Of a stretch of DNA of 58,074 bases, positions 34,526-57,476 are shown piece by piece. Made by a program: the position numbers and the translations under genes. The notes below the pieces were generated by a model. That model was given only the letters and a program-made list of their open reading frames with translations. It was not told where the DNA came from and searched no databases. The DNA comes from a virus (taxonomy: Duplodnaviria; Caudoviricetes): IMG/VR virus record IMGVR_UViG_3300011337_000184, positions 1 through 58,074 of that record; one strand, 5' to 3'. Position 1 is the stretch's first letter. The number at the start of each line of letters is the position of its first letter.

Positions 34526-34536
34526 TTCCTATCTCC

Positions 34537-35490
34537 TTACATGCCAGCGAAGTTGCGAGGCATCGCGTTGTTAAATCCGACTACGATCTTGTTGTAGCCA
34601 GCGGTTGCATCGTTGCCATTGATACCCGACAGTGGCGAAGATTGTCCTGGCAGGTAGTTTTGGATTGCGATGATGCGGAACGGCAGGAACGAGTTTGCAC
34701 CCGTCACGCCAGCCGAGGACAGCGTGAACTGGTCAGCAAACATGTCAGACAATCCCGTAGCGGTATTGCCGTTTGTCTCGCCAGTGGTGACGCTGTCATT
34801 CCACGCAAAGCCGATGTTCTCGCCAACGTTAGCTTGACCAACAGCGGTTGCGGTGGTGTTTGAGTTGCCAGTCTGCACCGAGAAACGAGCGTTTGGATCG
34901 GTGATGACGTAGGCTTCAACATCGTTTGCGGTGTCGGAGCCTGGCCAGTAGTTCGACCACACGGTGCGCTTTTGGGCGACCGACAGGTATTTGCAACCAG
35001 CAAACACGCCAGCAACTGGGGTATAGACTGTGACAACAGGAGTTGAGGTTGCCGAAGTTGCAGCGGTAGTGGTGGTGCTTTGGACAACAGCGGTCGTCGA
35101 GGTGGACGAGATGACCGTGAAGGCACCGTTTGGAACACCAGTTGCGTTCGTCACAACAATCGTCGAACCCACTGGGGGCGCGTAGTTTGTTGAGGCAAAG
35201 GTTGGGATGTTGGCGGTTGAACTTGCAATCGCGGTGTAGGTGATCGTCATCGCGCCAGTGGCGACGGTGGCAATACCAGTTGCAGACACGGTCAAGGTGA
35301 CGGGGCTGACGGCCTGCGCGATGTAGCCAGTACCCACGCCAGTGGCGTTGGTGGCCTGCATCACAGGGTCATTGAAGAAAATTGGTGTTGTATTGGTTGA
35401 CGCAATGGCAGCGCACGTCTGCTCATAGGTCGGAGCGGAACCAGTACCTGAGTACTGGGCAAAGCCGTTTGGCGCAAATGTATTCGCCAT
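34537..35490 (-). CDS. Capsid-associated protein (cement/decoration-like)
   Basis: MANTFAPNGF...IFFNDPV...GVFAGCKY...VITDPN; directly upstream of MCP. Confidence 0.6.
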   Translation of the reverse strand: MANTFAPNGFAQYSGTGSAPTYEQTCAAIASTNTTPIFFNDPVMQATNATGVGTGYIAQAVSPVTLTVSATGIATVATGAMTITYTAIASSTANIPTFASTNYAPPVGSTIVVTNATGVPNGAFTVISSTSTTAVVQSTTTTAATSATSTPVVTVYTPVAGVFAGCKYLSVAQKRTVWSNYWPGSDTANDVEAYVITDPNARFSVQTGNSNTTATAVGQANVGENIGFAWNDSVTTGETNGNTATGLSDMFADQFTLSSAGVTGANSFLPFRIIAIQNYLPGQSSPLSGINGNDATAGYNKIVVGFNNAMPRNFAGM

Positions 35491-35510
35491 GCGGAAATCT
35501 CCTTTACAGG

Positions 35511-35575
35511 AGGTCTATTTCGCGCACCGAGGCGATTTAGGACCAAAGGTTTATTGGGCCTCCCCGCCGAGGGGA
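35511..35575 (-). promoter_or_regulatory. Twin hairpins with shared CCTCGGYG loop in leader of capsid operon
   Basis: TCCCCTCGGCGGGGA and GGTCCTAAATCGCCTCGGTGCGCGAAATAGACC. Confidence 0.45.
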
Positions 35576-35612
35576 TGGATAAAAACACCATATAGCTATT
35601 TTTGAGATAAGT

Positions 35613-35638
35613 AAAGGGGGCGACCTGAGCCGCCCCAC
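35613..35638 (-). terminator. Intrinsic terminator
   Basis: GGGGCGGC-TCAG-GTCGCCCC then CTTTACTTAT. Confidence 0.65.
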
Positions 35639-35653
35639 CTTAGAAAACTATTA

Positions 35654-36184
35654 TCACTCTGGGATGGGCATGGCTTCATACCCCTTCTTGATCTTTGTCA
35701 TCTCGTTGCCCTTGTTGGAGCGTTCAAACTCACCTGGCTTGGCCGCAGACAGTTGCTCTTCCTTGGCGCGGACCTGCAGCCGTGCGCGGCGGTTCTCAAT
35801 GGCGCGTGCCTCTTCCGTGATAACCAGTGGCCGCTCCATCAGCACCATCCCCTTGCGGATGATCATGGTGCCAGTGTAGCCCAGCGGCATCATCTCAGGG
35901 TGACGTGACGCTGGCACAATCTCCCATCCCTTACGGGCCAGAGCAACTTGGTGTGCGGGGTCTTCAGCGCCAAGGACTGTCCACATTTTCCACTCGTATG
36001 ACCACTCATCTGGGATGATGCCACGCTCAACAAAAAACTCGTCGCTCCCGCTGTCTGTGTTGCTGTGGTTTTGGAGTTCAGCAGCACGCGCCGCCGCATC
36101 CCGTGGTTTTTCCTTGGTCACCATAGCGGGCCTCACACTTGGGCGTACAAGCTTTGCCGCCTTTTGAAATTCATCATCGCTCAT
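35654..36184 (-). CDS. Conserved head-module protein
   Basis: IPDEWSYEW...GWEIVPASRHPE...GMVLMERP; between scaffold and capsid genes. Confidence 0.65.
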   Translation of the reverse strand: MSDDEFQKAAKLVRPSVRPAMVTKEKPRDAAARAAELQNHSNTDSGSDEFFVERGIIPDEWSYEWKMWTVLGAEDPAHQVALARKGWEIVPASRHPEMMPLGYTGTMIIRKGMVLMERPLVITEEARAIENRRARLQVRAKEEQLSAAKPGEFERSNKGNEMTKIKKGYEAMPIPE

Positions 36185-36996
36185 CTGATTTTACCTTCCT
36201 TGATAAGTGCAATCTTGTGCTTGGCGTAGTCCTTTTCGTCCATGCCCATGTCAGACGCAGCCTCTCGCTCCGCCGCAGACAGCCTCACAGCATTCTTGTT
36301 GCCATTGCTGGTGCCACGGCTCACAGGTGCCGCCGCAGGTGCCGCATCGCGACGCTGCGTGACCTTGGCGGCATACTGGTCGCCCGTGTCGTTTGTCTGT
36401 TTTGCCACGCCCAGCTTTGCCTCAATGGCCGCAAAGTACGCGGGGGTGTCAACGGAGATACCATCGTCAACCGCGTCCTCATGTGCGCGGATCATTTTGC
36501 GATTTAGGCGCGGGTCAGTGACAAATTGTGGATTCCTGCGGACCCAGTTGGCAGATGTGGACGACAGACGTGACGCAAACGCCTCAACGGGGTCTGCGGG
36601 GACGTATTGAGGCTCTGGCGTCTTGGGCTTGGAGTTCATTGCCTCCAGACCGTTGCGAAGCTGCTGCAATTGAGCGGCTTTTTCGCCCATCAACTGCTGA
36701 ATCTCAGCTATGCCATCGTAATCCTGATTGTGCATGGCAATTTTTAGGTTGCTTTTCAAGATTTCATTGTCACGCATCACGCTGTCAATGGCACTGGACA
36801 CCAATTGGATTTCAGTGTCGTCTTTTTCGCTGTTTGCGGCATGCGCACGCCGTTCCGCAGCAACGCGGGCCTCGCGTTCGGCGGTAATTTGACGCTTCAG
36901 TTCAGAAATTGACTCCTGAAGGTCGGGAACTAGCGCTTCCTCGACCTCAGTTTCGGGCGCATCGTCAACAATGATCTCGATTTCTTCTTCATCCAT
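36181..36996 (-). CDS. Putative scaffolding protein
   Basis: Acidic coiled coil; W..RNP.F; C-terminal VRLSAAEREAASDMGMDEKDYAK. Confidence 0.7.
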   Translation of the reverse strand: MDEEEIEIIVDDAPETEVEEALVPDLQESISELKRQITAEREARVAAERRAHAANSEKDDTEIQLVSSAIDSVMRDNEILKSNLKIAMHNQDYDGIAEIQQLMGEKAAQLQQLRNGLEAMNSKPKTPEPQYVPADPVEAFASRLSSTSANWVRRNPQFVTDPRLNRKMIRAHEDAVDDGISVDTPAYFAAIEAKLGVAKQTNDTGDQYAAKVTQRRDAAPAAAPVSRGTSNGNKNAVRLSAAEREAASDMGMDEKDYAKHKIALIKEGKIR

Positions 36997-37008
36997 GTCT
37001 TTTCACCT

Positions 37009-37398
37009 TTAATAAACAGAATCTGGGTGGGGGGCGCGGCCTTTGATGCTGATGTCATCAAAAATACGGCACAAAACGCCATTTACGGTAATCGACCAGC
37101 CGTCGGACGGGCGGAAAATCAGCCATTCGTGGTCTTGGAACGTCATTCCCGTGAACCAGTTGCCATCCTGCTCAAATGCAAGAGGCCCGCGCTTGACCAA
37201 AAGGCCAACTTTGGACTGGTATTTGTCCTCGTCAAGGTGATCCGCCGTCAGGATCAGCCCTGATTTTGTTTTCTCTGGCCGAAGATACACGGCCAAAAGC
37301 ACTTGGTTGTGAAAAAGTTCAATTTCGGAGATGTCACCAAGTTGATCAAGCAGCTTTTGTGTGGGGTCTTCTTCATGGCTCATGGGCATATGTGGCAT
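37009..37398 (-). CDS. groES: Phage co-chaperonin GroES-like protein
   Basis: VLLAVYLRPEKTKSGLIL...VGLLVKRGPLAF...CRIFDD. Confidence 0.75.
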   Translation of the reverse strand: MPHMPMSHEEDPTQKLLDQLGDISEIELFHNQVLLAVYLRPEKTKSGLILTADHLDEDKYQSKVGLLVKRGPLAFEQDGNWFTGMTFQDHEWLIFRPSDGWSITVNGVLCRIFDDISIKGRAPHPDSVY

Positions 37399-37683: not shown

Positions 37684-39525
37684 TTATTTCTTGAGGTCTT
37701 TATTCATCTTTTCGCCGTAAGCTGCAACCTTCTCAAGGCGTGCCTTACCGCCTCCAGAGCCGCCAGTGATCGGATATACCACCTTGCCACCAGCCTTGCG
37801 GCCCATCATGGGTGGTGGCATTGGCGCGCCACCAGCGGGTGGCATAGGACCAGCGCCAGCAGCGCCAGACATGGCAGACATCAAACCTGGTGGCAGCGAC
37901 ATGTGCGCGGGTGGTGGCGCAGATGGCATTGGCGCAGGCATCGGTGGCATCGGCGGACGCATCATTGGAGGAGCGCTCATGGGTGGCATACCAGCGGGTG
38001 GCACGGGCATAGCGCCAGGCTTCTCGGCGTTGTGCGGGAAGATGTTAATGCTGATGTTGCTCTTGCCAACCTTGCCGCCAGTGGCGCGTGCCGTGCGGCC
38101 ACCGTCCATAATAGCGCCGCCACAAGCTTTGCACATGCAGTCCTTGTGGTGCATTGCCTTGCCGCCGTCTTTTTTCTCGGCAGTTTTGGCCGAATCTTTG
38201 AACGCATCAGCAGTTGGCGCACCCTTAGAACCGACTTTGCGCATCTTTTCCTTGGAGCCGTTTTCGATGCGCTCACGCTTGGCGTTGATGTTGGCATACA
38301 GACCGCCGCCATCTTTCTTGCCCATCGCAGCGCCACCGCAAGCTTTGCACATGCAATCCTTGTGGTGCATGGCTTTGCCGCCGCGATTGCGATCATTATC
38401 TTCATTTTTTTCTTGAGATGCTTTTGCAATATCGCGCAGATTGGCACCTTTACCTGAAACACCTAACCAATCCAAGTAATCAGGTGTTACTTCACGATTG
38501 TCCAATGCCTTTTGAAGCTGCTTTGGAGACATTGACTTGTATTTCTCGTAATTTCCAACAGGAGCCTTTGGTAGAATACCATCTTCATCATCCTTTTGAC
38601 GCTTGCTGCGCGCTGCCTTGTAAACTTCAGCACTAGTAAGACCCATGCTGCCGCCGCCCATCTTTGCGGTGCGACCGCCGTCCTTCATTTTGCCAACACC
38701 GTCAGCGGCAAAGAAAGGAACCTTCTTGCCGTCTTTTTCAACCATCTTCATCTTTCCGCCAGCAGCGTAACCCATGCTGCCGCCGCTCATCTTTTTGGAT
38801 GGCATGTCGTGCTTCTTGTCGGCGTCAGAGGCTTCCCATTCTTTCATGGTCATGCCGTGCTTCTTGGCCAGCTTCTTGTCTTCCATCATGTCCTTGGCGG
38901 AACCTTCAAACTTTTCAGCCTTGCCGCCGCGCTTGCGGCCCAAGGTTCTCAGGTCGTACTGATCTCTTTCCGCTGCTCGGTTTGCGCGTTCCAGGGCTTC
39001 CATAGCTTTAGCTTCATCCGCCGCTGCCATAATTTCTTTCATTCTTGCAGGAGATGGGCGAGGCATGGGCCGTGGGGACGATTTCATGCCACCTGCTGGC
39101 AGCATGCCCATCTCGTCCATCATTTCAGGAGTTGGACGGGGCATGGGACGTGGGGATGATGTCATTGGAGGCGTTCCGCCCTCTGCGTGGGCTGTGCGAC
39201 CGCCATTTTTCATACCGCCGATGTGCTTCTTGCCTTCGCGCTCTTCGTTGGCATCCTTGACGTTGCGGTTGACCAATGCATTTGCATACTCTGTCTTGCC
39301 GCCAGACTTGCGTGGCGTGCGGCCAGCGTGGGTCATGGCCTCAGCGCCAGCAACCTTGCCGCCGACCTTAAATGCGCGGCGCGAGATCGGGCGCATACCC
39401 GTCTTCACGTCTGCGTCCATAGGCTCGGCTTGTGTCCAAGTCGATGCGTCAACTTTTTCCGAAGTGGCTCCAGAGAGGCGCTTGGCCTTCTCCTTCATTG
39501 CCTCGCGTAGGCTTTTAGCGTCCAT
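37684..39525 (-). CDS. Low-complexity Met/Lys/Gly/Pro-rich protein with ~15 xxxGG motifs
   Basis: FKVGG, RKSGG, MKNGG, HAEGG, RKRGG, KMSGG, YAAGG, MKDGG, KMGGG, RNRGG, KKDGG x2, IMDGG, RATGG, RKAGG. Confidence 0.75.
   Translation of the reverse strand: MDAKSLREAMKEKAKRLSGATSEKVDASTWTQAEPMDADVKTGMRPISRRAFKVGGKVAGAEAMTHAGRTPRKSGGKTEYANALVNRNVKDANEEREGKKHIGGMKNGGRTAHAEGGTPPMTSSPRPMPRPTPEMMDEMGMLPAGGMKSSPRPMPRPSPARMKEIMAAADEAKAMEALERANRAAERDQYDLRTLGRKRGGKAEKFEGSAKDMMEDKKLAKKHGMTMKEWEASDADKKHDMPSKKMSGGSMGYAAGGKMKMVEKDGKKVPFFAADGVGKMKDGGRTAKMGGGSMGLTSAEVYKAARSKRQKDDEDGILPKAPVGNYEKYKSMSPKQLQKALDNREVTPDYLDWLGVSGKGANLRDIAKASQEKNEDNDRNRGGKAMHHKDCMCKACGGAAMGKKDGGGLYANINAKRERIENGSKEKMRKVGSKGAPTADAFKDSAKTAEKKDGGKAMHHKDCMCKACGGAIMDGGRTARATGGKVGKSNISINIFPHNAEKPGAMPVPPAGMPPMSAPPMMRPPMPPMPAPMPSAPPPAHMSLPPGLMSAMSGAAGAGPMPPAGGAPMPPPMMGRKAGGKVVYPITGGSGGGKARLEKVAAYGEKMNKDLKK
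38112..38382 (-). repeat. Duplicated GGKAMHHKDCMCKACGGA peptide (~55 bp x2)
   Basis: Near-identical DNA at ~38112-38166 and ~38328-38382. Confidence 0.9.
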
Positions 39526-39542: not shown

Positions 39543-41156
39543 TTACACGGCGTCCCGTTTGTGCTTTGCATTGTATACCGAAGTCAGGGACAATGCACGA
39601 TCAATGTTGCCGCTTATTGATTGCGGCGAAATTGGGCTGGAAGTTCCATTTCCTGCTCGACCGTAAGATGCTCTGGAGGTTTCCCGTGAAACTCCAGGTC
39701 CAGAAATGCTTCTCTGGTTAATGGCACCCCCGTTCGCCGCATGAGGCTGACTAGCGCCTCCTGTAAACCACGTTGGGGGGCGGATGCCGCCTGCTTTTTT
39801 GACAACTTGATTTCTGGCTTCATCTTGACTGATCTCCCCTTTGCGGTATCTGGCCCAAACATCATCAATGTCCTTTGCGTTTTTTGCTGTTTTGAAAGTA
39901 TCAGGAAACAAACCTCTGATGGCTTCCCATGTGATAGACTGCATCTCACGAGGGTGAATGCCTCGTGCTTTTGCGGCACGCCTATAGGCTTCGGCGTATA
40001 TAGGATATGTACCCTGAACACCAGAAATAGAGGAGCCACCAACGCCAGGAATACCCTTTCCTGGCGATGAACCGAAATTGTGCGACACTTCCACAGAAGT
40101 ACCAGACAGGGGGCGCATAAGAGCGGCTGCCACGGCGTGGGTGTCAATGGTGACATCACCCTTGGAAGAGTTTGGGTGCAGGATGTTGTTGTAAAAATTG
40201 CGAACTTTGTGTTTGTCACCCATAAGTTCTGACAGTTTTTGCGGATCGTGCGAATTATCTAATGCCTGAACCGCCTTGGCAATCTCGGTCAGTGAACCCC
40301 AGCCTGCGCCTGCATTTTTCCCAGATTTTGTTTTTACAAAATCACCAAAAGTTCCTTCTGGATTGACAATTTTATGTTCTCTTGAATTATACGTTTCGTC
40401 GTGAAGCCTGACCCACATAGCCTTAGCAATGGCTCTTTCGTCATCTGGAATGTTTTCACGATCCAGATCACCTAAAGACTTGCCTCTGATCATGTTGTGG
40501 ATGCCAGCGTACTCAGGCTTATTAAGAGATTTTGTTCCCTGAAGCTTGCTTTCCATTTCAGGGCTAAACGTAAAGCCATGGTAGAAGTTATCCCCCATAC
40601 CTCTCATGGTATGAATGACGCGGTGCGCCAAAGATACGTTTTGATACCAGTCTTTCTGTGGCGACATGGCGGCAAGCACGCCAGCTACCGCATGGTCTGG
40701 AACGTTGTAATCTTTTGACCACTTGTCGGTGATTGCCCTTGCGCCATCGTACCATTTCTTGCCGCGACTGCGGATTTCTGGCGGGACAGCATCATGCAGG
40801 GCCAAGAGGTTTTGTGTGGCATGGTCAATGAAATGTTCAGCAAGATCATTATTGCTTGCATTCTTAGCAACATCAGCGCGAACATTTGGATATCCACGAA
40901 CAATGCCGATTTGCTTGTTAAACAAATCTGGTGTTGATTTAAGGGCGTTAAGATCAACAGTATTTGCCGTGGTGTTTGTGTCCAAAAGTTTCTTTGATGT
41001 GATCAGTCTTTGCGGAATAAGCGCAGGATGATCAGGACCAAAAGCTGGTGTACCTGATCGAAATGGACCAAGGTACGGCTCCAAGTTTTGAGAGATAACT
41101 GGGTTTGCCTGCGCTGGTGATGTCAGGCTTAACGCCTTATTTACAATATCCGCCAT
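39543..41156 (-). CDS. HhH-GPD/glycosylase-like protein (DUF7178-like)
   Basis: KWYD...AGVLAAMSPQKDW..N...KVRNFYNNI...VTIDTH...Y.EAYRRAA...PREMQSITW. Confidence 0.55.
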   Translation of the reverse strand: MADIVNKALSLTSPAQANPVISQNLEPYLGPFRSGTPAFGPDHPALIPQRLITSKKLLDTNTTANTVDLNALKSTPDLFNKQIGIVRGYPNVRADVAKNASNNDLAEHFIDHATQNLLALHDAVPPEIRSRGKKWYDGARAITDKWSKDYNVPDHAVAGVLAAMSPQKDWYQNVSLAHRVIHTMRGMGDNFYHGFTFSPEMESKLQGTKSLNKPEYAGIHNMIRGKSLGDLDRENIPDDERAIAKAMWVRLHDETYNSREHKIVNPEGTFGDFVKTKSGKNAGAGWGSLTEIAKAVQALDNSHDPQKLSELMGDKHKVRNFYNNILHPNSSKGDVTIDTHAVAAALMRPLSGTSVEVSHNFGSSPGKGIPGVGGSSISGVQGTYPIYAEAYRRAAKARGIHPREMQSITWEAIRGLFPDTFKTAKNAKDIDDVWARYRKGEISQDEARNQVVKKAGGIRPPTWFTGGASQPHAANGGAINQRSISGPGVSRETSRASYGRAGNGTSSPISPQSISGNIDRALSLTSVYNAKHKRDAV

Positions 41157-41157
41157 G

Positions 41158-44100
41158 TCATTTCCCCTTGGGCTTTAGGGCATCTATAGCAGACTTGCCG
41201 TCCTTGGTAAATCGGCGTGTAAGAGCAAGCGCCGCATCAACTGCGCCGCCCAGCTTTTTACCAAATCTGCTGCGGATTGATGCCATCAGGCTAATCTCTT
41301 CTGGCTTGATAAAGTCTTCGGCACCCTCATGGTGAGACAGGTGAGACAGGACGCCAATCTTTTGGGGGGCGAAGATGGTGTCTTCGGTGCGGGCTTTGCG
41401 GTTATGTTCACCATGGGGGCCATAATTCAGCCAGCTATTCTGACCGCGTGTCTCAGAGGTCATGGCCATGCGTGCAAGCGGCGAAAACATGGCCGCGTGT
41501 GCGCGCCATGCGTTTTCCTCGCCATCTGCACGAAATCCAAGGCCCTCTTTTGCGTGACCGTAATAATCGTGAATTGCGCGAAATACATCATTCACCGTAA
41601 CGGGAATGCCGTTCCACTTCTCGCCAGTAAGCTGCAGCAGTGGGTTCTTTTTTGCATCATCCTCGCTGATTGGTTCGCCGCTTCCATACCCAGAGTAGGT
41701 TGGAAATACCCACATGTGGTGGTTGTTGCGAATATCTTCAGTGGCAAGGCGGGGTGACGCTTTGTATGGGTCTTCCTGTTTTCTTGGGTTCCAAAACTCA
41801 ATATTTAGTCCCGATTTTTTTGCGGCGCGGTATTGATCCATCGTCTCCTTGATCATCGCATCATACGATGCCTTGGTCAGGGGATCATTGGGATTGTCTT
41901 CCATGGCTGTGTAATCCGACGCAATGCGCGCCGCCCGCTTGGGATCAACCTTAGCGTATTTTGTTGGGGGGCTGTACGGCAACCCAGACTGCGCCATGTA
42001 GTCACGCGCAACCTGCCGAATGCGTGGGTCTGCGCTTGCTCGAATAATCTGCCCCGTCAAAGGAATGACTATTTTTTGGGGTAGACCTTCAAGAGGTGCT
42101 TCGTTCTGTGTTTGAAGAACGCCAGCGCCTCCTCGTATTCCTCCTGCGTTGGGAAGTTCTCCCGCTTGGGGGCGTGTTGCGTTATCATTGGGGGCAATTT
42201 CTGTTCCGACATTTAGTTCTCCATTTTGATCAGGTGTTCCGCCAGTTCCAAATCCGATGCGTCCGCTCTCGTCGTCGGGTAGCGAGTGATATATTTTACT
42301 GGCATTGTCTATTGTCGGATCAACCCCAGCATTTTGAAAGATGGCTCTCGGCATAGAGGCTGCCAATTTACCATCAGGTCCGACACCTTTGTTGCCATAT
42401 TTTTGAAATTGATTGCGAATACCATTTTGGTCGGCAGCCTCACGAGAAAACTTCAGCATGTCGTCAATTTGTTTGAAATGTCCATCTTTACTGCCAATCA
42501 TTGAAAGATTGGGATTTGGTCCCGCCTTGGCCCGCATATAATCGCGCCAACGGTTCCAAAAGTCATCTTTGGTATTAATTCCAGCTTTACGCATTCTGAG
42601 CATGTGCATGCCGTTTGCAGGTTCTTCCATTTGAACTGCGTCTTCTTTTTGTTGGTCAATTTCGCCGCCGCCGCCCTTTACAATTCTGGGTCTGCCGCCG
42701 ACCTTGTCGTATTTGTGCAGGTTGTTTTCGAACCACTCCAGCGGGACAGTGGTGACTTTTCTGTCCGCGTCTTGTGTTTCAAATTCCAGTGCGGGGTAAT
42801 GATTGTTGAACAGTTTCGTCATGTTTGGGGATGAACTGACGTGTTTTACAGTAAATCCTACAATTTTTTCGGGATCGTAATTGGGCAAACCGTTGTATTT
42901 AAACATGTCGCCTATTTGAAAATTGTCAAACGCGCCACTGGCGTGCGCCATGTCAAATGCCTTTTGTGACTCTGCGTACTTATCGGCCAGATCGGCAAAC
43001 ATATTTTGAGCGCCGTAACTGTGGTCGCCCGACATAATGTCCCGCTTGGTGCGGACTGTTGACAGGTTTGTTACGTTGTTATCCACCTCGCCACCCTCGG
43101 CTTTGTTCATGTGCTTCTCCTTAGGGTCAAACTTGCCGTTGTTCCAGATCGACTTAATCTGCTGCGGCTCCTTCAGTGCCACCACAAGGTTGCCGTTCTG
43201 ACTGGCAGGAACCCACGAGTCATGGCCCTTGGCGCGAAGTGTGTCGAACCAGTCGGACTGCGCCGCCTTGTAATTGTCGCGCAAATACTCCTCTGGCAAC
43301 TCGCCCGTGTAGGGGTTTTCCGCCTTCACATAGGCTGGGATGACGCGGGACGCGGTGTTGGTGGGCGTCAGCTTCCATCCGTCCTGCTTGTATCCTTGGC
43401 TGTCGTTCTGTTCGGCGTACGATGACGCAGCTTCAGGATCGCGCACGAACCACGCGCCGTGACGGCCCACGTTGTGAGAGGTAAAGTCCTTGTCCTTGCT
43501 GGTGCCAGTGTACAGGACATGTGGCTCCCCATTGGTGTGGGTCACGCTGTTGCCAAACCAGTTGCGGAACTCGTCGGTGTCGGTGACGCGGCCACCCTCT
43601 GCCTTTGGCTGCGCTTGCGGCGACAACATATTGACTGAACTGTCCCTGTCGATGGCGGAGAAAACATCTTCTAAGCTGGCGTCTGACGCGCTGTACGGCC
43701 TGCGCCCCAGACGGTATGCGGTTGTTGCGGCAGCCTTAGATGATACCTGACCCATAAGGGCTGGGTGACGCTCCATGGCTTCGGCCTGCAGCATCTGCCC
43801 AATGCCCTTGCCACGGTGTTCCTCTGGGACTTCAAGCCCCAGAACTGAAGCTGGTCCATTGCGGCGCTCTAAGACTTCAATATGACTGCCTGTCTCTGGG
43901 TGAACGTACCGATGGATCATCGCCCCATCGCCAAAAATGCCTGAACCGTCTTTGCTTTGCACTGTAATTGCGCCACCCCCCGCCTTGGTGATGTCGGGGT
44001 CGGTTGGGTCGAAGTTGCCGTTGTTGCCGATGGCGCTCTTTACCTGTTCAGGCTTGAAGGCAACGTACTCTTTTGAACCGTCAGGGCGGTGGGCAATGAT

Positions 44101-46311
44101 GCCGTCAAAGCCAGAGTTGCGGATTGTCTGGTGTATCTTGTGTTGGCCAAACTGGTTGACCATTGTGCCATCTGGCGTATCGCGCAGAAAAAGGTCGCGC
44201 ACGGTCGCTGTACCGTCATCCAGCTTCTGAATAAGTTGTTCACTACTCTCTTTTGCGTTGTTTGAGTTGGTAGGATTCAACCACAAAGCTTTCTTGACCT
44301 CATTCTTAATGTAATCTTTCCATGCTGGATGGCGTAGAACACTGTCAGTAAATGGGTTTTTCATGCTGACGTGCAGCTTGAACACTTGACCGTGCGGCCT
44401 GGCTTCGGCACTTTCACCGCGAATACCTTGGGCAAAGTCGCTGGCAACCTTTGGGCTGTCAGACAGGTAGATGCCAGCGCCGTAGTTACCATATTCAGAC
44501 GGCTTGAATGCGCGGAAATCTTGCGATGCAATATTTCGGTCGGTTGCCTCTTGGTCAATCTCGTCAGTCCAACCCTTACGTTCAATTCTTGGAATACTAC
44601 CATGATACAAAACATCGGGAACCAGAGGGTGGTTTCCTTCTTGAAACGCCGCTTTACCCACAGGGCCACCATCGGCTTTGGTGATGTCTGGGGTGTCTGA
44701 TGCCATGCCAAAAACCCGATCTGGGTGCATGGGGCCATCAACATTTTCAGCGCCGTTCCAGTATCTGACCTCGGCCTTTACCTTTGGGATGCCAAGGGTG
44801 TGGGCCACAGCAACCCGCGTGTTGCCCTCAAGCAGGTATGGCTGGCCATAATGGTTCACGGCCACCACAACCTTATTGCCCTTCTGATCGTGGTCAAAAC
44901 CACCCTTTTGGGCGTCAGATAACAGGTTGTCGTACTTATGAACGCCCGCAGTCCGCGTTTCGTCGTTCATGCCAGCAATGCCCTTCAAAATATGGGTGGG
45001 CAAGAACATGCTTGACCTGCCGCCAATGACTCCAGTGATGGCACCAGCGACAAACTTCCTGTCTGGATATTGGGCAGCCCGTGCCTGCTTTCCTTCAAGC
45101 CATTCACCGCCTGGGTTGTCCTGTGTGAAGTCGCGCTTGCCTTCAACGTTGCCACCGCCTCCCTTCGTAATTGATTGTTGCTGAATGGCAGATGGGTCAG
45201 TAACAATGTAAGAGTGATCTGGAGTGACGAAACTGGTCATCCGACCCTCTTCCATGTCCTTCCATGTCGGACCAGCATCAAAATTGTTCATGTAGCGCAG
45301 GGCTTTAATGTTTGATTTTGACAAAGCTTTGGAAAAAAGAACGTTCTGGGCTTTCATCGTCTCGTCAGGGTGGCTGATCCTATTTTCAATGTCCTGAAGG
45401 CCGTCATAGGTCTTGTTGAATGTGTCAGAATCGATTCTGCCAGTCCCGTGCAGATGGTCTAGGATGTCGTAGAAGTCAAACCTGTTTGATGCCGCAGGGA
45501 TGTCAACAATCTGCTCTGGGCGCGCATTGATCTTGAACGCCTTTGGCGAGACTTTTTCTGCCATGTCTGGCCGACCCATCAGAGATTTTACTGCTGCGTT
45601 ATGCGCCAAGTCTGGGTTTGCAGCAAAGTGAATGCCAACATCGCGGGCGCTCGGACGAAACTGACCGACAATGTTTTCTGGGGATGCGTGATAGGCGGTG
45701 ATGCCATCGGCACCATTCTCGCGGCCACCATCAGCGTGGACGGCGCGAGGTACGTTGGGCATGTATTTGGACGGGGCGATCTGGCCACCAGCGCGGTTCT
45801 TTGCGGTAATGGCGCGGGCAAGTTCCATCGCGCCGCCCGTGGAGTAGCCTTTGACTTTTTCAGTTTCTGGATCATACCCAAACGGCATCATCCTATTAGC
45901 GGCGCTTTTACCCACGCCTGCCGCTCGACCTACGTTGACAGCCTCGCGAACAATATCAGCCCTTTGCCCCATGTCATCGTAATTATTTAGGCGCTTCTTC
46001 CACATTTTAGTGGCATCATCGGAAAGCCCAAGAGGGCTTGGCATCATTTTTCGCCCAATATCGCTTTCAGCTACATCATACAATTTTGACGCAATGCCCA
46101 TACGCCTGAAGTCTGGATGCACCTCAACCCTTGTGGCGTATGGAGCGCGGGAAGAAAGGTTCATCTCCCCAACCCTCTGGCCATTATGCTCGGCAATATA
46201 GGTATCGCCGTACTGTTTATAGATCGACAGAGGCCCATCTTGGTGCAAAAGTTTCTTGTCCATACCCTTGGCCGTCAGCTTTGCCGCACGGATCGCCTTG
46301 TCCTTGTCCAT
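41158..46311 (-). CDS. Large polyvalent protein: 2 GNAT, 3 ADP-ribosyltransferase-like, ParB-like and HDxxGH domains
   Basis: VEVHPDFRRMGIA; LEVPEEHRGKGIG; AYHAS..GIHF; LYHGS..GIYLS..GFDGII..EYVAF.PEQVKS; F..WFG.S..EP.VLYTGT; LLEGNTRV; AIHDYYGH. Confidence 0.75.
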   Translation of the reverse strand: MDKDKAIRAAKLTAKGMDKKLLHQDGPLSIYKQYGDTYIAEHNGQRVGEMNLSSRAPYATRVEVHPDFRRMGIASKLYDVAESDIGRKMMPSPLGLSDDATKMWKKRLNNYDDMGQRADIVREAVNVGRAAGVGKSAANRMMPFGYDPETEKVKGYSTGGAMELARAITAKNRAGGQIAPSKYMPNVPRAVHADGGRENGADGITAYHASPENIVGQFRPSARDVGIHFAANPDLAHNAAVKSLMGRPDMAEKVSPKAFKINARPEQIVDIPAASNRFDFYDILDHLHGTGRIDSDTFNKTYDGLQDIENRISHPDETMKAQNVLFSKALSKSNIKALRYMNNFDAGPTWKDMEEGRMTSFVTPDHSYIVTDPSAIQQQSITKGGGGNVEGKRDFTQDNPGGEWLEGKQARAAQYPDRKFVAGAITGVIGGRSSMFLPTHILKGIAGMNDETRTAGVHKYDNLLSDAQKGGFDHDQKGNKVVVAVNHYGQPYLLEGNTRVAVAHTLGIPKVKAEVRYWNGAENVDGPMHPDRVFGMASDTPDITKADGGPVGKAAFQEGNHPLVPDVLYHGSIPRIERKGWTDEIDQEATDRNIASQDFRAFKPSEYGNYGAGIYLSDSPKVASDFAQGIRGESAEARPHGQVFKLHVSMKNPFTDSVLRHPAWKDYIKNEVKKALWLNPTNSNNAKESSEQLIQKLDDGTATVRDLFLRDTPDGTMVNQFGQHKIHQTIRNSGFDGIIAHRPDGSKEYVAFKPEQVKSAIGNNGNFDPTDPDITKAGGGAITVQSKDGSGIFGDGAMIHRYVHPETGSHIEVLERRNGPASVLGLEVPEEHRGKGIGQMLQAEAMERHPALMGQVSSKAAATTAYRLGRRPYSASDASLEDVFSAIDRDSSVNMLSPQAQPKAEGGRVTDTDEFRNWFGNSVTHTNGEPHVLYTGTSKDKDFTSHNVGRHGAWFVRDPEAASSYAEQNDSQGYKQDGWKLTPTNTASRVIPAYVKAENPYTGELPEEYLRDNYKAAQSDWFDTLRAKGHDSWVPASQNGNLVVALKEPQQIKSIWNNGKFDPKEKHMNKAEGGEVDNNVTNLSTVRTKRDIMSGDHSYGAQNMFADLADKYAESQKAFDMAHASGAFDNFQIGDMFKYNGLPNYDPEKIVGFTVKHVSSSPNMTKLFNNHYPALEFETQDADRKVTTVPLEWFENNLHKYDKVGGRPRIVKGGGGEIDQQKEDAVQMEEPANGMHMLRMRKAGINTKDDFWNRWRDYMRAKAGPNPNLSMIGSKDGHFKQIDDMLKFSREAADQNGIRNQFQKYGNKGVGPDGKLAASMPRAIFQNAGVDPTIDNASKIYHSLPDDESGRIGFGTGGTPDQNGELNVGTEIAPNDNATRPQAGELPNAGGIRGGAGVLQTQNEAPLEGLPQKIVIPLTGQIIRASADPRIRQVARDYMAQSGLPYSPPTKYAKVDPKRAARIASDYTAMEDNPNDPLTKASYDAMIKETMDQYRAAKKSGLNIEFWNPRKQEDPYKASPRLATEDIRNNHHMWVFPTYSGYGSGEPISEDDAKKNPLLQLTGEKWNGIPVTVNDVFRAIHDYYGHAKEGLGFRADGEENAWRAHAAMFSPLARMAMTSETRGQNSWLNYGPHGEHNRKARTEDTIFAPQKIGVLSHLSHHEGAEDFIKPEEISLMASIRSRFGKKLGGAVDAALALTRRFTKDGKSAIDALKPKGK

Positions 46312-48609
46312 TTACTTCCCCTGTTTGCGGAGTTGCATTGCCAGCTTTACGGCGTCTGCGGCGTGGTCACGCTGCTGCATATCACGTTCGTGCTGCATCC
46401 GAACAGCATCATTCATCTGGTCGCGGTCCATGCGCATTTGTTCAACCCGCAAATCCTTTTCTCGGTCGAGGTCGCGGTTCTGGTCGTTCATCTGGTCACG
46501 CTGCATGGAGAACTCCATCTGGCGCGCCTTGTTTTGCTCGGCCATCATCTTGGATGGGTCCACGGGCTGCCCCTGCGGACCCTGCGGTGCGCCAGATTTT
46601 GACTGCGCGCCGATCATGGCTGCCTGCGCACGCATGGTGTCGGCGTCGGCCCTCTGGTGGGCGATCTTGATCTCCTCAACGCCCTTCAGGAACTCAGGCG
46701 GCGGCTGCTTGGCTTCGGCGGGCTTGAGGAATTGCTCAGGGTTCGACCAGCCGATGGCACGCAGCGCGGCCTTGTCGATGGCTTCCTCGTCATACATCTG
46801 CGGGTTTGCGGCCTGCAGTTGCTTCAACGCCATGATCTTCATCACGCGCTGGGCGTGGCTTGACGTGTTCGGGTCTGCCTGCGGCACCAGTTCCACGTCG
46901 TTCAGCGCCTGCATGAACAATTCCTCATTCCACTGGACGGTGGGCTTGCGGTTGCGCTGCCAGAAACTTTCGGGATGCTCACGGAAGCACTTCAGAAGCA
47001 GGGAAAATTCCTCAGCCTGCGCTGAGTGCATCCGCTTGTGGACGGCGTTCATAATCTTGGTGGCTTGGTCGATCATCGCCAGTGTGGTGCCGACGGGCGC
47101 ATCTGCACGGCCCTCACCCACCTGAGCCTCGGACGTGCCGCCGACACGCATACCAGTCTGAGACATGTTCTCCACCAGTGACATCAGCGCGCCCGATGGC
47201 TCCTTGTACGGCAGCGGCATCACGGCCTGATTGATTGGCATTCCGCCAGTCTTGATCTGCGCCGACCCGCCAGGCGGGATGCGGAATATGTTTGTGTTTT
47301 GGCGCGATCCAGTGTCGCTGACCAGAAACCCTGGGAAGTTGGCGTACATGCCAGCGTCCAGCAGTTCTCGCCACGCGGCGGTGATGGCGTTGGTGGTGTT
47401 GCCGAGGATGTGCAGCAGGCCGATGTCGTAAAAGCCAAGGCCTGGGACAAATGTATACTTCACAAAGTTGGTGCGCGCCTCTGGCAGGTCTGCGGTGTCC
47501 TGATCAAAGTTGCGGGTGATTGACAGGATTTTGCGCGACGACACGTCAATGGTGACGCGGTACGGGATTTCAAGGCCGCTGGCCTTGCCCTTGTACTTGT
47601 GTTCATATCCGCTGATGTCCAACTCGCAATAGACCTCGTAAATCTCGCGGTCGCGGTCTTCTGGGTTGGCCGACGTGGCGGTGATGCCCTGCTGCGAACT
47701 CTTAGCGTCCTGCGCGGCGTCGGGCGAAATCTCCTGCGGCGTGGACAGGTCGGTGTCATCATAGACGCCAATGATCTGCAGGCGCTTGACCGTACTGGGG
47801 CGCATGTACACGCGGTGCGTGACGCGCTTGGCGTTGGACAGGTCAGTGGCGGCGCTGTTGACGATCAGGTTGTCGGCGTCCACGCTCTCGCTGACGGGGC
47901 GGTTGCGCAGCGGGCAGAAGTAAACCTTCTTGAACGACGTGCCACCAAAACCCAGCATCAGCAACATGCGGTCTGTGTCTGGGTAATACTCCCGCGCCGT
48001 GCTGGTCAGATAGTGGTTCATGTCCTTCTCAAGCGCGTTGGCGATCTCGTCGCGCTGCAGCGTGCTGCCGTTGGCATCATCCCGAATCTTCACGGGGCCG
48101 TCGGTAGGCAGCAGTTCGGAGCGTGCGTTGGCCTGAAAGCGCAGGACGGCTTCCTGCAGCAGCGGGTGGCGAACCTTTGACATGCCTTCAATCGGCGCGC
48201 CGTCAGCCGCACCATTCAGCCCAGGGATTTCAATCTTGAGGCCCAGCAGCTTGATGCCTTGGGCGCGATCTTCGATCCACTCGCTGCGGCTCTCAAGGTC
48301 ATCCTCGACGCCACGGATCAGGTCGTCGGCAATGTTTTGCAGTTCTTCGTCGTCAATCTCGCTAACAAGGTTGTCAAACCAGCCCTCTGGGGGCGTCTTC
48401 TCGTTGTCGGCGTCCTTGAGTGGCTTACCATCCAGCGACAGCGTGATTGAGCCGTCGCCGTGTTCGATCTTGAGGATCGCACCGTCTTGGGAAATTTCTG
48501 GAATGTCTTCAGGCTCCGCGTCATCATGCTCAACGGTTACATCCATCGGGCCAATCGCGGCATCAGCTTCATCATCATGCATACGGATATTTGGGTTCAA
48601 GCCTGACAT
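46312..48609 (-). CDS. Portal protein
   Basis: SRSEW, HPLLQEAVLRFQA, GTSFKKVY, YTFVPGLGFY.IGL.H, LLDAG, APVGTTLA; downstream of terminase. Confidence 0.9.
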   Translation of the reverse strand: MSGLNPNIRMHDDEADAAIGPMDVTVEHDDAEPEDIPEISQDGAILKIEHGDGSITLSLDGKPLKDADNEKTPPEGWFDNLVSEIDDEELQNIADDLIRGVEDDLESRSEWIEDRAQGIKLLGLKIEIPGLNGAADGAPIEGMSKVRHPLLQEAVLRFQANARSELLPTDGPVKIRDDANGSTLQRDEIANALEKDMNHYLTSTAREYYPDTDRMLLMLGFGGTSFKKVYFCPLRNRPVSESVDADNLIVNSAATDLSNAKRVTHRVYMRPSTVKRLQIIGVYDDTDLSTPQEISPDAAQDAKSSQQGITATSANPEDRDREIYEVYCELDISGYEHKYKGKASGLEIPYRVTIDVSSRKILSITRNFDQDTADLPEARTNFVKYTFVPGLGFYDIGLLHILGNTTNAITAAWRELLDAGMYANFPGFLVSDTGSRQNTNIFRIPPGGSAQIKTGGMPINQAVMPLPYKEPSGALMSLVENMSQTGMRVGGTSEAQVGEGRADAPVGTTLAMIDQATKIMNAVHKRMHSAQAEEFSLLLKCFREHPESFWQRNRKPTVQWNEELFMQALNDVELVPQADPNTSSHAQRVMKIMALKQLQAANPQMYDEEAIDKAALRAIGWSNPEQFLKPAEAKQPPPEFLKGVEEIKIAHQRADADTMRAQAAMIGAQSKSGAPQGPQGQPVDPSKMMAEQNKARQMEFSMQRDQMNDQNRDLDREKDLRVEQMRMDRDQMNDAVRMQHERDMQQRDHAADAVKLAMQLRKQGK

Positions 48610-51130: not shown

Positions 51131-52771
51131 TCACACGTTGTAGAGCGGCACATCCCCGTTCCCATGGAACTGCTTGCTGCCCTCGATTTCAGCCATCCGT
51201 TCTGCGGCTCGTGTAAGCATACCCACATCCCGCAAGTGTTTCAAGGCCATTGACACAGTATCCACAAGATCGTCGTGCTTTCCGCGTGGGAATGACGATG
51301 TCTGCCGAATCACCATCTCGGCCCAGTCTTTGTTTGGCGCGTACACCATGCCCTCGCTGAAGATGTGCTGCACGGAGTATAGGCGCGCCACCTTATCGAG
51401 GGTCTTTGGATCATACATCTGGACAGTGAAGTCCTCATTTCCAAACAGACGCCGCATCTCCTGCGCCACCGAATGACCCGCAGCCTTGTTTTCGATTAAA
51501 AGCACATCGACCTTCATACGTTTGCATATGTCCGCCACCTTCTCTGTCAGGTCATGCACCTCAAGCTTATCCTGCCACGCGTACATCAGCATGGCCTTTG
51601 GCACGGGGCCGAGCGCCGATGACTGGAAGCTGCGGGTGACATCCATCTGCCTGCCGTATCGGTCCACTGATCTGGTCGCCGCCGAATCGGAACTGCCGCC
51701 GAACACGCCCCAGATCGTCAAGGCGCTGGGGTCGTTCTCGGCCTTGATGGTGTATGCGGTGTCAAGAGATGCCACGATGTACTCGATGGGCGGATATTCC
51801 GCACGTTCCCACAGTTGCCACCAACTGTCCTTCACAATTCCGCCGCCCCGTGGCTCAGGTGACTGCGCATACTGGCCTGCAGTCGCATATGGCCCCATCG
51901 CCGCCTCGTCGCGGTCAACGACGTGTTCTGGGAAGCGGTCGGGGAACAACAACTCTCCGTCGTCTTCGCGGGGGTCTTCGTATCCCAGCATCGTCGGCGT
52001 CGACCGCAGCGGATCATACCGCATCGGCAGCATGATGTGATCATACCCCATGCCGCCAGCGTCGAGGATGACGCCAGACACGTCCAGTTCGTGCAGTCGT
52101 TGCATCACCACCACGATGGCTGATCGGTCAGGGTTGTTGAGGCGCGAGGTCACGGCTTCCTTGAATAGGTCAGTCGTGGTCTTCCGCTTGGCTTCCGAGT
52201 TTGCGTCATCCACCGAATGCGGATCGTCTATGATCACGCGGTCGCCACGGTAACCTGTGATCCCCGTAAAGGCGCACGCCTGCCGTGACCCTGTGGCGGT
52301 CGTCTCAAACTTGCCCTTGGCGTTCTGATCGCCCACCAGTTTGACGCGGTTGCCCCAGTGGCCCTGATACCATTCATCACTGACCAGTCGCCGCATTCGC
52401 AGGCTGTCACGCAGGGCAAGTTCAAGGCTGTGCGAGGCGCAGACATACCGCATCGACGGCATGTTCTTCGGACCCCATTCCCACGCGGGCCAGAACACGC
52501 CGACCAGCAGCGACTTCATGGTGCCTGGCGGTACGTTGGTCAGCAGGCGGTTGTAATACGTGCCGTCGTCCAAGATCACGCCGTCCGTGATGGCCTCAAG
52601 GTGCGCGCAGATGAAGTCGATGTGCCAGCCGTGGACGTAGGGCTGCTCAGGCTCGATGACATGCCACGCGGCCTTCACAAACGCGGCCAGAGATATCTCA
52701 CAGCGCCGCTTCTCGATCACCTTGCGCTGCGCCACCGCGTCGATGGCAAACGGAAGCTTAATTACTGACAT
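51131..52771 (-). CDS. terL: Terminase large subunit
   Basis: NVPPGTMKS, ITGYRGDRVIIDDPH, VVMQRLHE.D, SLDTA, LIENKAAG, DKVAR, FPRGKHDDLVD. Confidence 0.95.
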   Translation of the reverse strand: MSVIKLPFAIDAVAQRKVIEKRRCEISLAAFVKAAWHVIEPEQPYVHGWHIDFICAHLEAITDGVILDDGTYYNRLLTNVPPGTMKSLLVGVFWPAWEWGPKNMPSMRYVCASHSLELALRDSLRMRRLVSDEWYQGHWGNRVKLVGDQNAKGKFETTATGSRQACAFTGITGYRGDRVIIDDPHSVDDANSEAKRKTTTDLFKEAVTSRLNNPDRSAIVVVMQRLHELDVSGVILDAGGMGYDHIMLPMRYDPLRSTPTMLGYEDPREDDGELLFPDRFPEHVVDRDEAAMGPYATAGQYAQSPEPRGGGIVKDSWWQLWERAEYPPIEYIVASLDTAYTIKAENDPSALTIWGVFGGSSDSAATRSVDRYGRQMDVTRSFQSSALGPVPKAMLMYAWQDKLEVHDLTEKVADICKRMKVDVLLIENKAAGHSVAQEMRRLFGNEDFTVQMYDPKTLDKVARLYSVQHIFSEGMVYAPNKDWAEMVIRQTSSFPRGKHDDLVDTVSMALKHLRDVGMLTRAAERMAEIEGSKQFHGNGDVPLYNV

Positions 52772-53243
52772 CGAGAATTTTTTCCAGCGTCTCCAGTTCC
52801 TCAAGCGACAAGTTCGACACGTCGATGGTGTTCTGCACTTTGATGGGCGCGTCTTCAACGCCGCCAAGGAATGTCTTGTCGCCGTATTTCTTGGGGTTCA
52901 TGCGGCCCAGCGCCCACTTGCGCGAGTCAACGCGAAGGCGGCTGCGCTGCACATGCTCACCATTCAGCACCACCGATGTCGGGTCTTCCGAGTTGCGCAA
53001 CATGAAGTCATTGGTGCCATCGTCCGCGATGTCCATGATTTCCTCAAACATCGCATCGGCCCGCATTTGCATAGCGCGTGAGTATTGCGCCGAACGATCA
53101 GGGTCTGCGTTCAAAATTTTCATCAGCGTGCTAATAGCTGGCATGCGTCCGTCTTTGCAAATAGTGCGGACACTCTCGCCCGTCACCATCCGCTCACAGA
53201 TTTCGTCAAACAGTTCATCGGTCATATCGAATATAACAGGCAT
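52758..53243 (-). CDS. terS: Terminase small subunit
   Basis: ICERMVTGESVRTICKDGRMPAIST...Y.RA...IAD...RLRVDSRKW.L..M.PKKYGD. Confidence 0.9.
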   Translation of the reverse strand: MPVIFDMTDELFDEICERMVTGESVRTICKDGRMPAISTLMKILNADPDRSAQYSRAMQMRADAMFEEIMDIADDGTNDFMLRNSEDPTSVVLNGEHVQRSRLRVDSRKWALGRMNPKKYGDKTFLGGVEDAPIKVQNTIDVSNLSLEELETLEKILDVSN

Positions 53244-57237: not shown

Positions 57238-57476
57238 TCCACAAGGCACTGCTGGCCGATGGGTCGGCCCTGTCCCTCTTGGCGCTTGCTCACATTGAGC
57301 GCCACGACGACATCATCCGCGATCTGGAGAAGAAGATCGCCACGCTGTCGGCTGAGATTGATTTCTTGGCCGACCGAACCGCCACCAAGATTGTGGCCCC
57401 GAACATCAACTGCATCAAAGCCTTGGAAGAGGCTGGGATGCCCCAAGCCGCATCAGTCTTACGGAGAATGAAATGA
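57234..57476 (+). CDS. Hypothetical protein
   Basis: GAGGT RBS; ATGA overlaps at both ends. Confidence 0.65.
   Translation: MIHKALLADGSALSLLALAHIERHDDIIRDLEKKIATLSAEIDFLADRTATKIVAPNINCIKALEEAGMPQAASVLRRMK

Follow-up and report, generated by a model that had tools for sequence, protein, structure and literature searches.

The gene directly behind the portal gene in the tailed virus IMGVR_UViG_3300011337_000184 (Duplodnaviria; Caudoviricetes) encodes a 1717-aa (amino acid) protein, here named P0001, which has the defining features of the polyvalent proteins of Iyer et al. (2017). It is built of an N-anchor, a variable string of modules of about 180 aa, and a C-anchor, with a short peptide, termed the joint, at the module borders. 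The joint has the lineage-specific consensus [K/R/Y/F]-[A]-[D/E]-G-G-x-[V/I]. Relatives gain, lose, and permute modules at the joints, both in protein and in DNA, and it is strongly supported that segments cut at the joints act as whole exchangeable units. The window analyzed is the entire IMG/VR record of 58,074 bases, with a completeness estimate of 97%. The first-pass annotation of this DNA had described a 1717-aa open reading frame (ORF) with eleven GG sites immediately after the portal; all eleven sites were confirmed in the sequence, and the two genes abut, with the ATG of the cargo ORF at 46311 and the portal stop codon at 46312-46314. The portal search returned 399 related stretches, from which 80 loci were kept (L004-L083 among their labels), and the post-portal gene in complete copies varied in length from 534 to 1837 aa. 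The parts of P0001 are as follows.

41158-46311, minus strand: P0001, post-portal polyvalent cargo protein, 1717 aa
45844-46311, minus strand: M0, GNAT, aa 1-156, Pfam Acetyltransf_7/1 at aa 35-85
45721-45843, minus strand: N-anchor, aa 157-197, core PSKYMPNVPRAVHADGG, GG sites YSTGG, NRAGG, and HADGG
45163-45720, minus strand: M1, aa 198-383, first annotated as "ART-like 1"; 91% identical joint-bounded unit in L017/L047
45151-45162, minus strand: joint TKGGGG-NV, aa 384-387
44671-45150, minus strand: M2, aa 388-547, first annotated as "ParB-like"; three internal conserved GG
44665-44670, minus strand: joint ITKADGG-PV, GG at aa 548-549
43981-44664, minus strand: M3, ART-PolyVal ADP-ribosyltransferase, aa 550-777, PF18760, 108.9 bits against a cut-off of 31.2
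43972-43980, minus strand: joint ITKAGGG-AI, aa 778-780
43597-43971, minus strand: M4, probable second GNAT, aa 781-905, Acetyltransf_CG E 5.7e-5, under the cut-off (aa 806-847)
43591-43596, minus strand: joint PKAEGG-RV, aa 906-907
43096-43590, minus strand: M5, second ART-PolyVal-like module, aa 908-1072, BLASTP against M3 E 1e-7
43090-43095, minus strand: joint NKAEGG-EV, aa 1073-1074
42676-43089, minus strand: M6, aa 1075-1212, directly preceding the C-anchor in several relatives
42664-42675, minus strand: joint VKGGGG-EI, aa 1213-1216
42244-42663, minus strand: M7, aa 1217-1356, single homologue, L044
42238-42243, minus strand: degenerate joint FGTGG-TP, aa 1357-1358, followed by a Gly-rich linker
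41251-42237, minus strand: M8, "HDYYGH" domain, phrog_3170, aa 1359-1687
41161-41250, minus strand: C-anchor, aa 1688-1717, KKLGG-AVDAALALTRRFTKDGKSAIDALKPKGK, joint plus terminal ALxLT helix

The homologues of P0001 are mosaic. An independent set comprised the 119 listed of 372 mosaic homologues from a collection of 5.8 billion proteins, and none of these 119 aligns over more than 39% of P0001 in one alignment. In the portal-linked loci, 61% of the 123 internal ends of BLASTP high-scoring segment pairs (HSPs) lay within 6 aa of the 11 sites, compared with a random expectation of 9.3% and a maximum of 18.7% in 2000 draws. The set of 119 homologues gave 298 of 522 HSP ends (57%) at the same distance (random 9.4%, maximum 13.4%). 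Boundaries were also defined independently of the motif: 120 proteins were compared all against all, and every cluster of 8 or more HSP ends was taken as a boundary. A total of 866 such boundaries were obtained; 663 had a GG within 10 aa, compared with 22% of positions, and 555 had the strict motif, [KRYHF]xxGGx[VIAM], compared with 9% of positions. Cuts after the strict motif divided the 120 proteins into 829 segments with a median length of 180 aa. Segment pairs from different proteins matched over at least 85% of both members in 15,003 of 27,072 cases (55%), and an equal number of random cuts gave end-to-end matches in 481-621 of about 48,000 pairs (about 1%).

The same was observed in DNA. 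The 18 distinct blastn HSPs (at least 80% identity, at least 150 nucleotides) had 32 non-gene ends, 29 of which were located within 16 nucleotides of a GG codon block; the exceptions were one contig end and two ends 58 nucleotides past the degenerate joint at aa 1357. Base composition, which had been reported to differ visibly between adjacent modules, does differ among them, the G+C content at third codon positions ranging from 0.40 to 0.79. AlphaFold2 models were calculated for two halves of P0001 from shallow fragment alignments (46 and 39 rows), with mean predicted local distance difference test (pLDDT) scores of 54.9 and 53.7. Confident cores were obtained only for aa 551-776 (M3) and 908-1067 (M5), and the joints of both lie in stretches with pLDDT below 50 (aa 491-549, 777-800, 861-907, and 1068-1097). 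The placement of the motif between domains and not inside them, as first proposed, is thus borne out by the protein and DNA breakpoints, with AlphaFold2 in agreement for the two well-modelled modules only. Comparison of homologues for module gain or loss at the motif gave the same picture, breakpoints being concentrated on the joints in protein and DNA. The suggestion of a point of cassette exchange is strongly supported; however, the DNA microhomology at the joints amounts to just about 6-9 degenerate bases.

The motif had been described as xxxGG, and here too one part stood and another did not: the specific joint pattern is enriched against shuffled sequences, but bare GG is barely above expectation. 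P0001 contains 22 GG dipeptides in 17 runs, a mild enrichment over the 15.5 expected from composition, and six GG runs beyond those first listed (aa 401, 430, 470, 1205, 1390, and 1394) fall inside modules or in a linker. The strict motif occurs 8 times in P0001 compared with 0.80 in shuffles, and none of 5000 shuffles reached 8. The pooled profile of 673 distinct GG contexts showed an excess of K (2.8-fold), Y (2.8-fold), and F (2.6-fold) at position -3, A (3.1-fold) at -2, and V (4.7-fold) at +2. In the 119 homologues, 701 motifs were found with 77 expected, and in 124 proteins retrieved by the N-anchor alone, 432 with 47.6 expected, a 9-fold enrichment in both sets. At least three joint motifs were present in 74 of the 80 N-anchor-retrieved proteins of at least 500 aa.

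The joint is conserved as a peptide and not as DNA, since the wobble position of its lysine is free and the residues at -3 and +2 come from unlike codons. Across 264 distinct joints, lysine codons were unbiased (AAA 0.46 against a background of 0.44), aspartate codons were mildly skewed (GAT 0.57 against 0.45, p 0.06), and the alanine at -2 favoured GCC and GCT. The first joint glycine was encoded by GGT in 49% of cases compared with 22% in the background, with GGA and GGG nearly absent, a skew that probably reflects avoidance of Shine-Dalgarno-like (GGAGG) and G-run sequences. The pair GGT-GGC, for which single-codon use predicts about 12% of motif sites, accounted for 29% of them, and GATGGTGG for 34% of D-G-G sites against about 10% expected. 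It is very improbable that the joint is mainly a DNA recombination signal (microhomology or Chi-like GGTGG) with the peptide as a by-product. The location of breakpoints within 16 nucleotides of the GG codons, the excess of GGT-GGC and GATGGTGG, and the GGT skew of the first glycine would suit such a signal; however, the wobble positions are free at the flanking K and largely free at D and V, the first-glycine skew equally fits avoidance of GGAGG and GGGGG runs, identity covers no more than about 6-9 degenerate bases, and the preferred residues at -3 (K/R/Y/F) and +2 (V/I) have dissimilar codons. An exact E. coli-type Chi octamer is present at one joint (aa 175) and is the sole copy in the gene. 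A Chi-like signal was considered and set aside as weak, with a single exact octamer in the gene and a codon skew otherwise explicable.

Searches of the modules against Pfam, PHROGs, and NCBIfam revealed only GNAT, ART-PolyVal, and phrog_3170, and a sequence search of the PDB with P0001 gave no matches. Among the domain names given in the first-pass annotation, GNAT (aa 35-85) and ART-PolyVal (aa 597-767) were recovered by Pfam and M5 proved to be an ART paralogue, the second GNAT being weak. Two names were not confirmed: M1, "ART-like 1" (aa 198-383), has no significant similarity to the ART module (E 1.1), and M2, "ParB-like" (aa 388-547), has no Pfam match and an empty profile search against the PDB. 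A Foldseek search with the second half-model returned only weak PARP-fold matches, for M5 (best E 0.14, none at E<=0.001). M0 is placed behind an N-terminal "DKAIRAAKLT" helix, and the relatives L038 and L048 share aa 1-196 at 83%; M4-like units, 63-66% identical, form the N-terminus of the L009-L012 proteins. The HDYYGH domain of M8 was found in 220 phage records, including a cyanophage "large polyvalent protein", and its homologue gp205 of Rhodococcus phage E3 is annotated as "structural protein"; no fold could be assigned to it from the ESM Atlas, which gave only unnamed viral clusters, or from the M8 profile against the PDB, which was empty. The module repertoire of 46 relatives includes ART-PolyVal (28), M15-type cell-wall peptidases (10), GNAT (5), DUF7178 (4), L5 gp82-like (4), and DUF3990 (3), with InPase, PARP, GP88, DUF6782, and GapR as single cases.

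Both ends of the chain are conserved. Residues 157-197 of P0001 correspond to aa 13-53 of the post-portal protein in most relatives, and the GNAT module has been inserted before the N-anchor, at the first GG of the ancestral N-terminus. The N-anchor core P-[ST]-[KH]-Y-[LM]-P-x-V-[PG]-R...G-G is invariant even where the portals are 63-67% identical. Its profile matched 271 protein clusters at E<=0.001, and 119 at 1e-10, among 1.84 billion searched. A predicted complex of the portal with the N-anchor scored 0.00, a value that weighs neither for nor against binding. The C-anchor was modelled by AlphaFold2 with helices at aa 1690-1701 and 1705-1715. Its ALxLT motif, A-[LIMF]-x-[LIV]-T, usually follows [IV]-x-[KR] (IVNKALSLT, VDAALALT). 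Of 60 complete relatives, 34 have it within their last 45 aa; it falls within the first 30 aa in 9 of 82, and no interior matches were seen in 71,109 aa. In the independent set, 93 of 119 C-termini carried the motif, with 3 interior matches. In the window, it is present at the C-terminus of P0001 and at both ends of the neighbouring protein P0003, and chance-like in three unrelated ORFs. With this terminal distribution, ALxLT is a better candidate than the joint for a per-polypeptide packaging signal, or it may be an end-to-end pairing signal.

Three further proteins of the window were compared with P0001.

39543-41156, minus strand: P0003, DUF7178, 537 aa, ALSLT at both termini
37684-39525, minus strand: P0002, basic, 613 aa, Pro/Met-rich, disordered, and indel-rich, with 22 GG runs, 11 of the strict motif
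15167-19048, minus strand: P0004, internal-virion-protein-D-like, 1293 aa, tail lysozyme domain, three joint-like motifs

The joint peptide is common to two other head or internal proteins, P0002 and P0004. The 11 strict motifs of P0002 compare with 0.60 in shuffles (0 of 5000 reached 11), and the 3 of P0004 with 0.65, a marginal excess, as 135 of 5000 shuffles reached 3. P0003 has no strict motif, and all other ORFs of the window (about 15,200 aa) together have 6. In P0002 orthologues, the invariant columns are mostly GG sites amid indel-rich sequence, and the joint-like motifs of P0004 are conserved in the relative MW202675.1. The counterpart of P0003 is fused within the post-portal protein in distant relatives (L065, L070, L082, and L058), so the post-portal genes form one cargo set split into one to four ORFs, and ORF boundaries in the cargo cluster are fluid.

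P0002 is lysine-rich and contains the Cys motif KAMHHKDCMCKACGGA twice; its aa 409-452 (45 aa, phrog_16028) recur with 60-77% identity in T7-like cyanophages, pelagiphages, and roseophages. In the closest GenBank relative, MW202675.1 (40315-48977), the cargo region consists of four genes, each with the joint motif, annotated as "peptidase M15", "hypothetical", "type I restriction enzyme", and "yenB", names that look spurious. The "yenB" product is orthologous to P0002 and has 13 GG sites in its 383 aa. No motif-dense proteins were found in the examined stretches of Caulobacter phage RW and Pelagibacter phage HTVC027P.

The window is a near-complete genome of a podophage-like virus with ejection proteins, as indicated by the SU10-family portal and adaptor, both matched by Pfam, and by the match of P0004 to the "internal virion protein D" of MW202675.1. 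In phage SU10, five ejection proteins exit the head, as described in the passages of PMC9509320 on ejection. The first 272 bases of the record (1-272) are repeated at 57803-58074 with 98.9% identity, and the ORFs 25-753 and 57473-58072 are 96% identical over their overlap, which points to a terminal repeat or, alternatively, to a circularly permuted genome that wrapped around in the assembly. Near-identical DNA was not found in the phage collection. The genes of the head module are listed below.

51131-52867, minus strand: large terminase
46312-48609, minus strand: SU10-type portal protein, phrog_1216, PF23899
37009-37398, minus strand: GroES-like protein, Cpn10 E 0.0026 (under the cut-off), phrog_3188 E 8e-5
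36181-36996, minus strand: coiled-coil scaffold-like protein, 271 aa
35654-36184, minus strand: head-module protein, 176 aa
34537-35490, minus strand: head-module protein, 317 aa
33614-34525, minus strand: major capsid protein

The order on the minus strand is terminase, portal, cargo ORF, P0003, P0002, GroES-like protein, the proteins of 271, 176, and 317 aa, and capsid. The joint motif was absent from the remaining head-module proteins (33614-37398, GroES-like through capsid), and none of them was protease-like. The 271-aa protein matched Mu-like_Pro only below the threshold, over the scaffold half of that family (E 0.031), PDB profile searches with the 176-, 271-, and 317-aa proteins yielded nothing, and an ESM Atlas search with the 176-aa protein was empty. 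A GroES-like head-module gene is also kept in the distant cultured Caulobacter phage RW and Pelagibacter phage HTVC027P, and the mobile-loop-like stretch of the protein is EKTKSGLILT. Mimicry of a GroES mobile loop (K-x-A-G-G-I-V-L) by the joint was set aside, the joint being polar at +1 and +3 and the loop of the virus's own GroES-like protein being without GG. Outside the head module, there are several genes for DNA modification and nucleotides (Mom-family protein, C-5 cytosine methylase, and dCTP deaminase-like, dUTPase-like, and thymidine kinase-like proteins), as well as a primase-polymerase, a YqaJ exonuclease, and endonuclease VII.

Given its gene position and annotations, P0001 is most likely the main polyvalent cargo protein of this virus, carried inside the head and delivered to the host on ejection. 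The joint is tentatively read as an exposed, uncleaved spacer in a shuffling cargo protein, with a probability a little short of even. Such a spacer would let any pair of adjacent modules fold and unfold independently, both while the terminal anchors (PSKYLPxVPR...GG and ALxLT) retain the chain in the head and while it threads through the tail. As all modules share the joint, a crossover in or next to it would give an in-frame functional chimera, which would explain the fast shuffling of the locus. Several points weigh against the uncleaved spacer. A passive spacer would not need a K/Y-A-D/E...V consensus across lineages with 63-67% identical portals, and the retention of so specific a consensus speaks for recognition of the peptide by a partner, be it a protease or a docking site. 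About 23% of the motif-independent boundaries have no GG within 10 aa; AlphaFold2 performed poorly for seven of nine modules, joints outside folds being seen for two only; packaging and ejection are deduced from gene position and annotations; and the protease negative comes from sequence profiles only, several head proteins being without an assigned fold. In addition, the demarcation motif of the nearest analogue is also cleaved, according to the passage on VENN in PMC9424206, and polyvalent proteins were argued to need processing in the main text of Iyer et al. (PMC5512222).

Were the joints proteolytic sites, a cut at or after G-G following packaging or ejection would free the enzyme modules and chop P0002 into small peptides, in the manner of T4 or phiKZ internal proteins, of adenovirus or African swine fever virus polyproteins cut after GG, or of CdiA cut after VENN. 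This is somewhat unlikely, although the short, specific consensus found at each border, in which P1 and P2 are small, would suit it, as would the natural C-termini of relatives 2-4 aa past GG (GGAV, GGVV, and GGVAK, each followed by a stop), the resemblance of AVDAALALT after the last GG to ADIVNKALSLT, the natural N-terminus of the next protein, and the sharing of the motif by several internal proteins, as one trans-acting enzyme would predict. Modules with unrelated activities would gain from release, an argument put forward in the main text of PMC5512222, and VENN doubles as demarcation motif and cleavage site, as stated in part of PMC9424206. Against cleavage, the prohead-protease families PF04586 (S78), PF00574 (ClpP), PF01343 (S49), and PF03420 (S77) had 0 matches at E<=1 in the 97%-complete genome, and a Pfam scan of P0001, nine head-module proteins, and 45 other ORFs revealed no peptidase (25 of 29 families listed for the 45). 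MPTase was found neither in P0001 nor in the 46 relatives, whose peptidases are only cell-wall M15/VanY and, in a single relative, DUF6782, a putative metallopeptidase. The residue after GG is variable and offers no nucleophile, and the upstream module varies from joint to joint, so there is no constant "pretoxin" domain as a catalyst. A separate scaffold-like gene with no protease is the arrangement of podophages that are not known to process their head proteins. Autoproteolysis by an N-O shift was rejected because a variable residue follows GG.

Still less probable, and on the whole quite unlikely, is a short docking motif read by the capsid inner face, scaffold, or portal, by which the modules and P0002 would be tethered in the procapsid in the manner of encapsulin cargo-loading peptides or the T4 capsid-targeting sequence. 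Peptide-level conservation in islands amid disordered, indel-rich sequence, as in P0002 with its mostly GG invariant columns, agrees with docking, and so does the confinement of the motif to head and internal proteins (8, 11, and 3 in the three cargo proteins vs. 6 in about 15,200 aa); some natural C-termini retain GG-x-V, suggesting that the hydrophobic residue at +2 is read. However, no partner was identified, separately encoded modules may lack an N-terminal joint although each separate protein has a terminal ALxLT helix, and P0003, another cargo candidate, is without the motif. A possible but doubtful wider view takes the joint as a common "address code" read in the head by a cryptic packaged protease, the HK97-fold capsid inner face, or scaffold. 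If true, the phage would take up into its head an arbitrary, fast-changing assortment of anti-host enzymes, perhaps to be set free later; this would be a phage counterpart of encapsulin loading peptides or of Gly-Gly polyprotein maturation, in a podophage lineage thought to be without head proteolysis.

Polyvalent proteins are viewed as the tools of a phage's first strike at the defences of its host, and their build, packaging, and diversification are largely a matter of inference. Here, a lineage with hundreds of mosaic metagenome members shows a grammar of anchor, joint-separated modules, and anchor. By the joint rule, giant phage proteins that are uncharacterised can be cut into functional units about 180 aa long, which leads to a catalogue of candidate anti-defence modules. 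Mutants of joints and anchors provide an experimental handle on processed versus intact threading, and the grammar itself is a natural design for loading chosen cargo in phage heads.

Like the proteins described in the main text of Iyer et al. 2017 (PMC5512222), P0001 carries many unrelated effector domains in one polypeptide, with at least two unrelated effectors (GNAT and ART-PolyVal) and at least five further exchangeable modules. A polyvalent-defining domain, PF18760, is present in P0001; ART-PolyVal was found in 28 of 46 relatives and InPase in 1. The late or virion gene context and the presumed delivery with DNA are likewise shared, as that main text describes them (PMC5512222). MPTase-mediated self-processing was proposed there for polyvalent proteins (PMC5512222). 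P0001 differs in that no MPTase or other processing peptidase, frequent in polyvalent proteins and not obligatory, was found, and its lineage differs in the uniform joint peptide and the short conserved N- and C-terminal anchors. The words "linker" and "glycine" have 0 uses in the main text of PMC5512222, and the supplementary alignments might show linkers. The polyvalent protein of Planktothrix phage Pag-Yong1 has no such joints in its 20 GG contexts.

MuF proteins encoded downstream of the portal are head-located and portal-binding and have variable toxin or enzyme domains, including ADP-ribosyltransferases, according to the passages on MuF in PMC5576092. The P0001 gene resembles those of MuF polymorphic toxins and SPP1 gp7 described there in lying directly downstream of the portal (PMC5576092). 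A MuF domain (PF04233/PF06152) was not detected in P0001 in a Pfam scan at E<=1, the MuF3/4 profiles being outside the library; a conserved peptide of about 40 aa stands in the place of MuF, and many modules are present in contrast to one C-terminal toxin. In phages with internal proteins processed by a prohead protease, several ejected proteins share one short motif, as here. The internal proteins and Alt of T4 are cleaved at L/I-x-E, and those of the phiKZ/SPN3US type at S/A/G-x-E. Phages that process head-internal proteins (T4, phiKZ/SPN3US type) encode an essential prohead protease, as stated in part of PMC10052503, and this is where they differ, as no protease gene was found in the present genome. 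In the SU10 paper, "cleavage", "protease", and "scaffold" have 0 occurrences (PMC9509320). The literature searched contained no phage paper with the motif strings and no account of joints of this kind, and the topics of Gly-Gly with prohead protease and of ART-PolyVal gave nothing relevant. Adenain and pS273R of African swine fever virus (ASFV), clan CE cysteine proteases in the virion, cut viral polyproteins or core proteins after Gly-Gly. Their sites have a small or hydrophobic residue two positions upstream of G-G, and basic DNA-associated proteins are among the carriers, as here. These are systems of eukaryotic viruses with a different capsid lineage, and no such enzyme was seen in the window.

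The closest likeness is to the demarcation motifs of polymorphic toxins. VENN marks off the CdiA-CT modules and permits their exchange, as reported in parts of PMC3150448 and PMC9424206. VENN and PxxxxDPxGL (Rhs) are short peptides at which homologues abruptly diverge and modules are swappable if fused there, with homology blocks running from motif to motif, according to the passages on these motifs in PMC3150448; the P0001 joints and segments behave in the same way. VENN and DPxGL occur as a single motif after a constant pretoxin domain, with one variable C-terminal toxin and an immunity gene, whereas proteins of the P0001 lineage have up to 11 joints with variable modules on both sides of each, and no immunity-like small ORFs were found between the cargo genes in the window. 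By this analogy, the joints may be regarded as a multi-copy functional counterpart of the VENN and PxxxxDPxGL motifs, which would carry the demarcation principle known from polymorphic toxins beyond a single junction to an entire chain.

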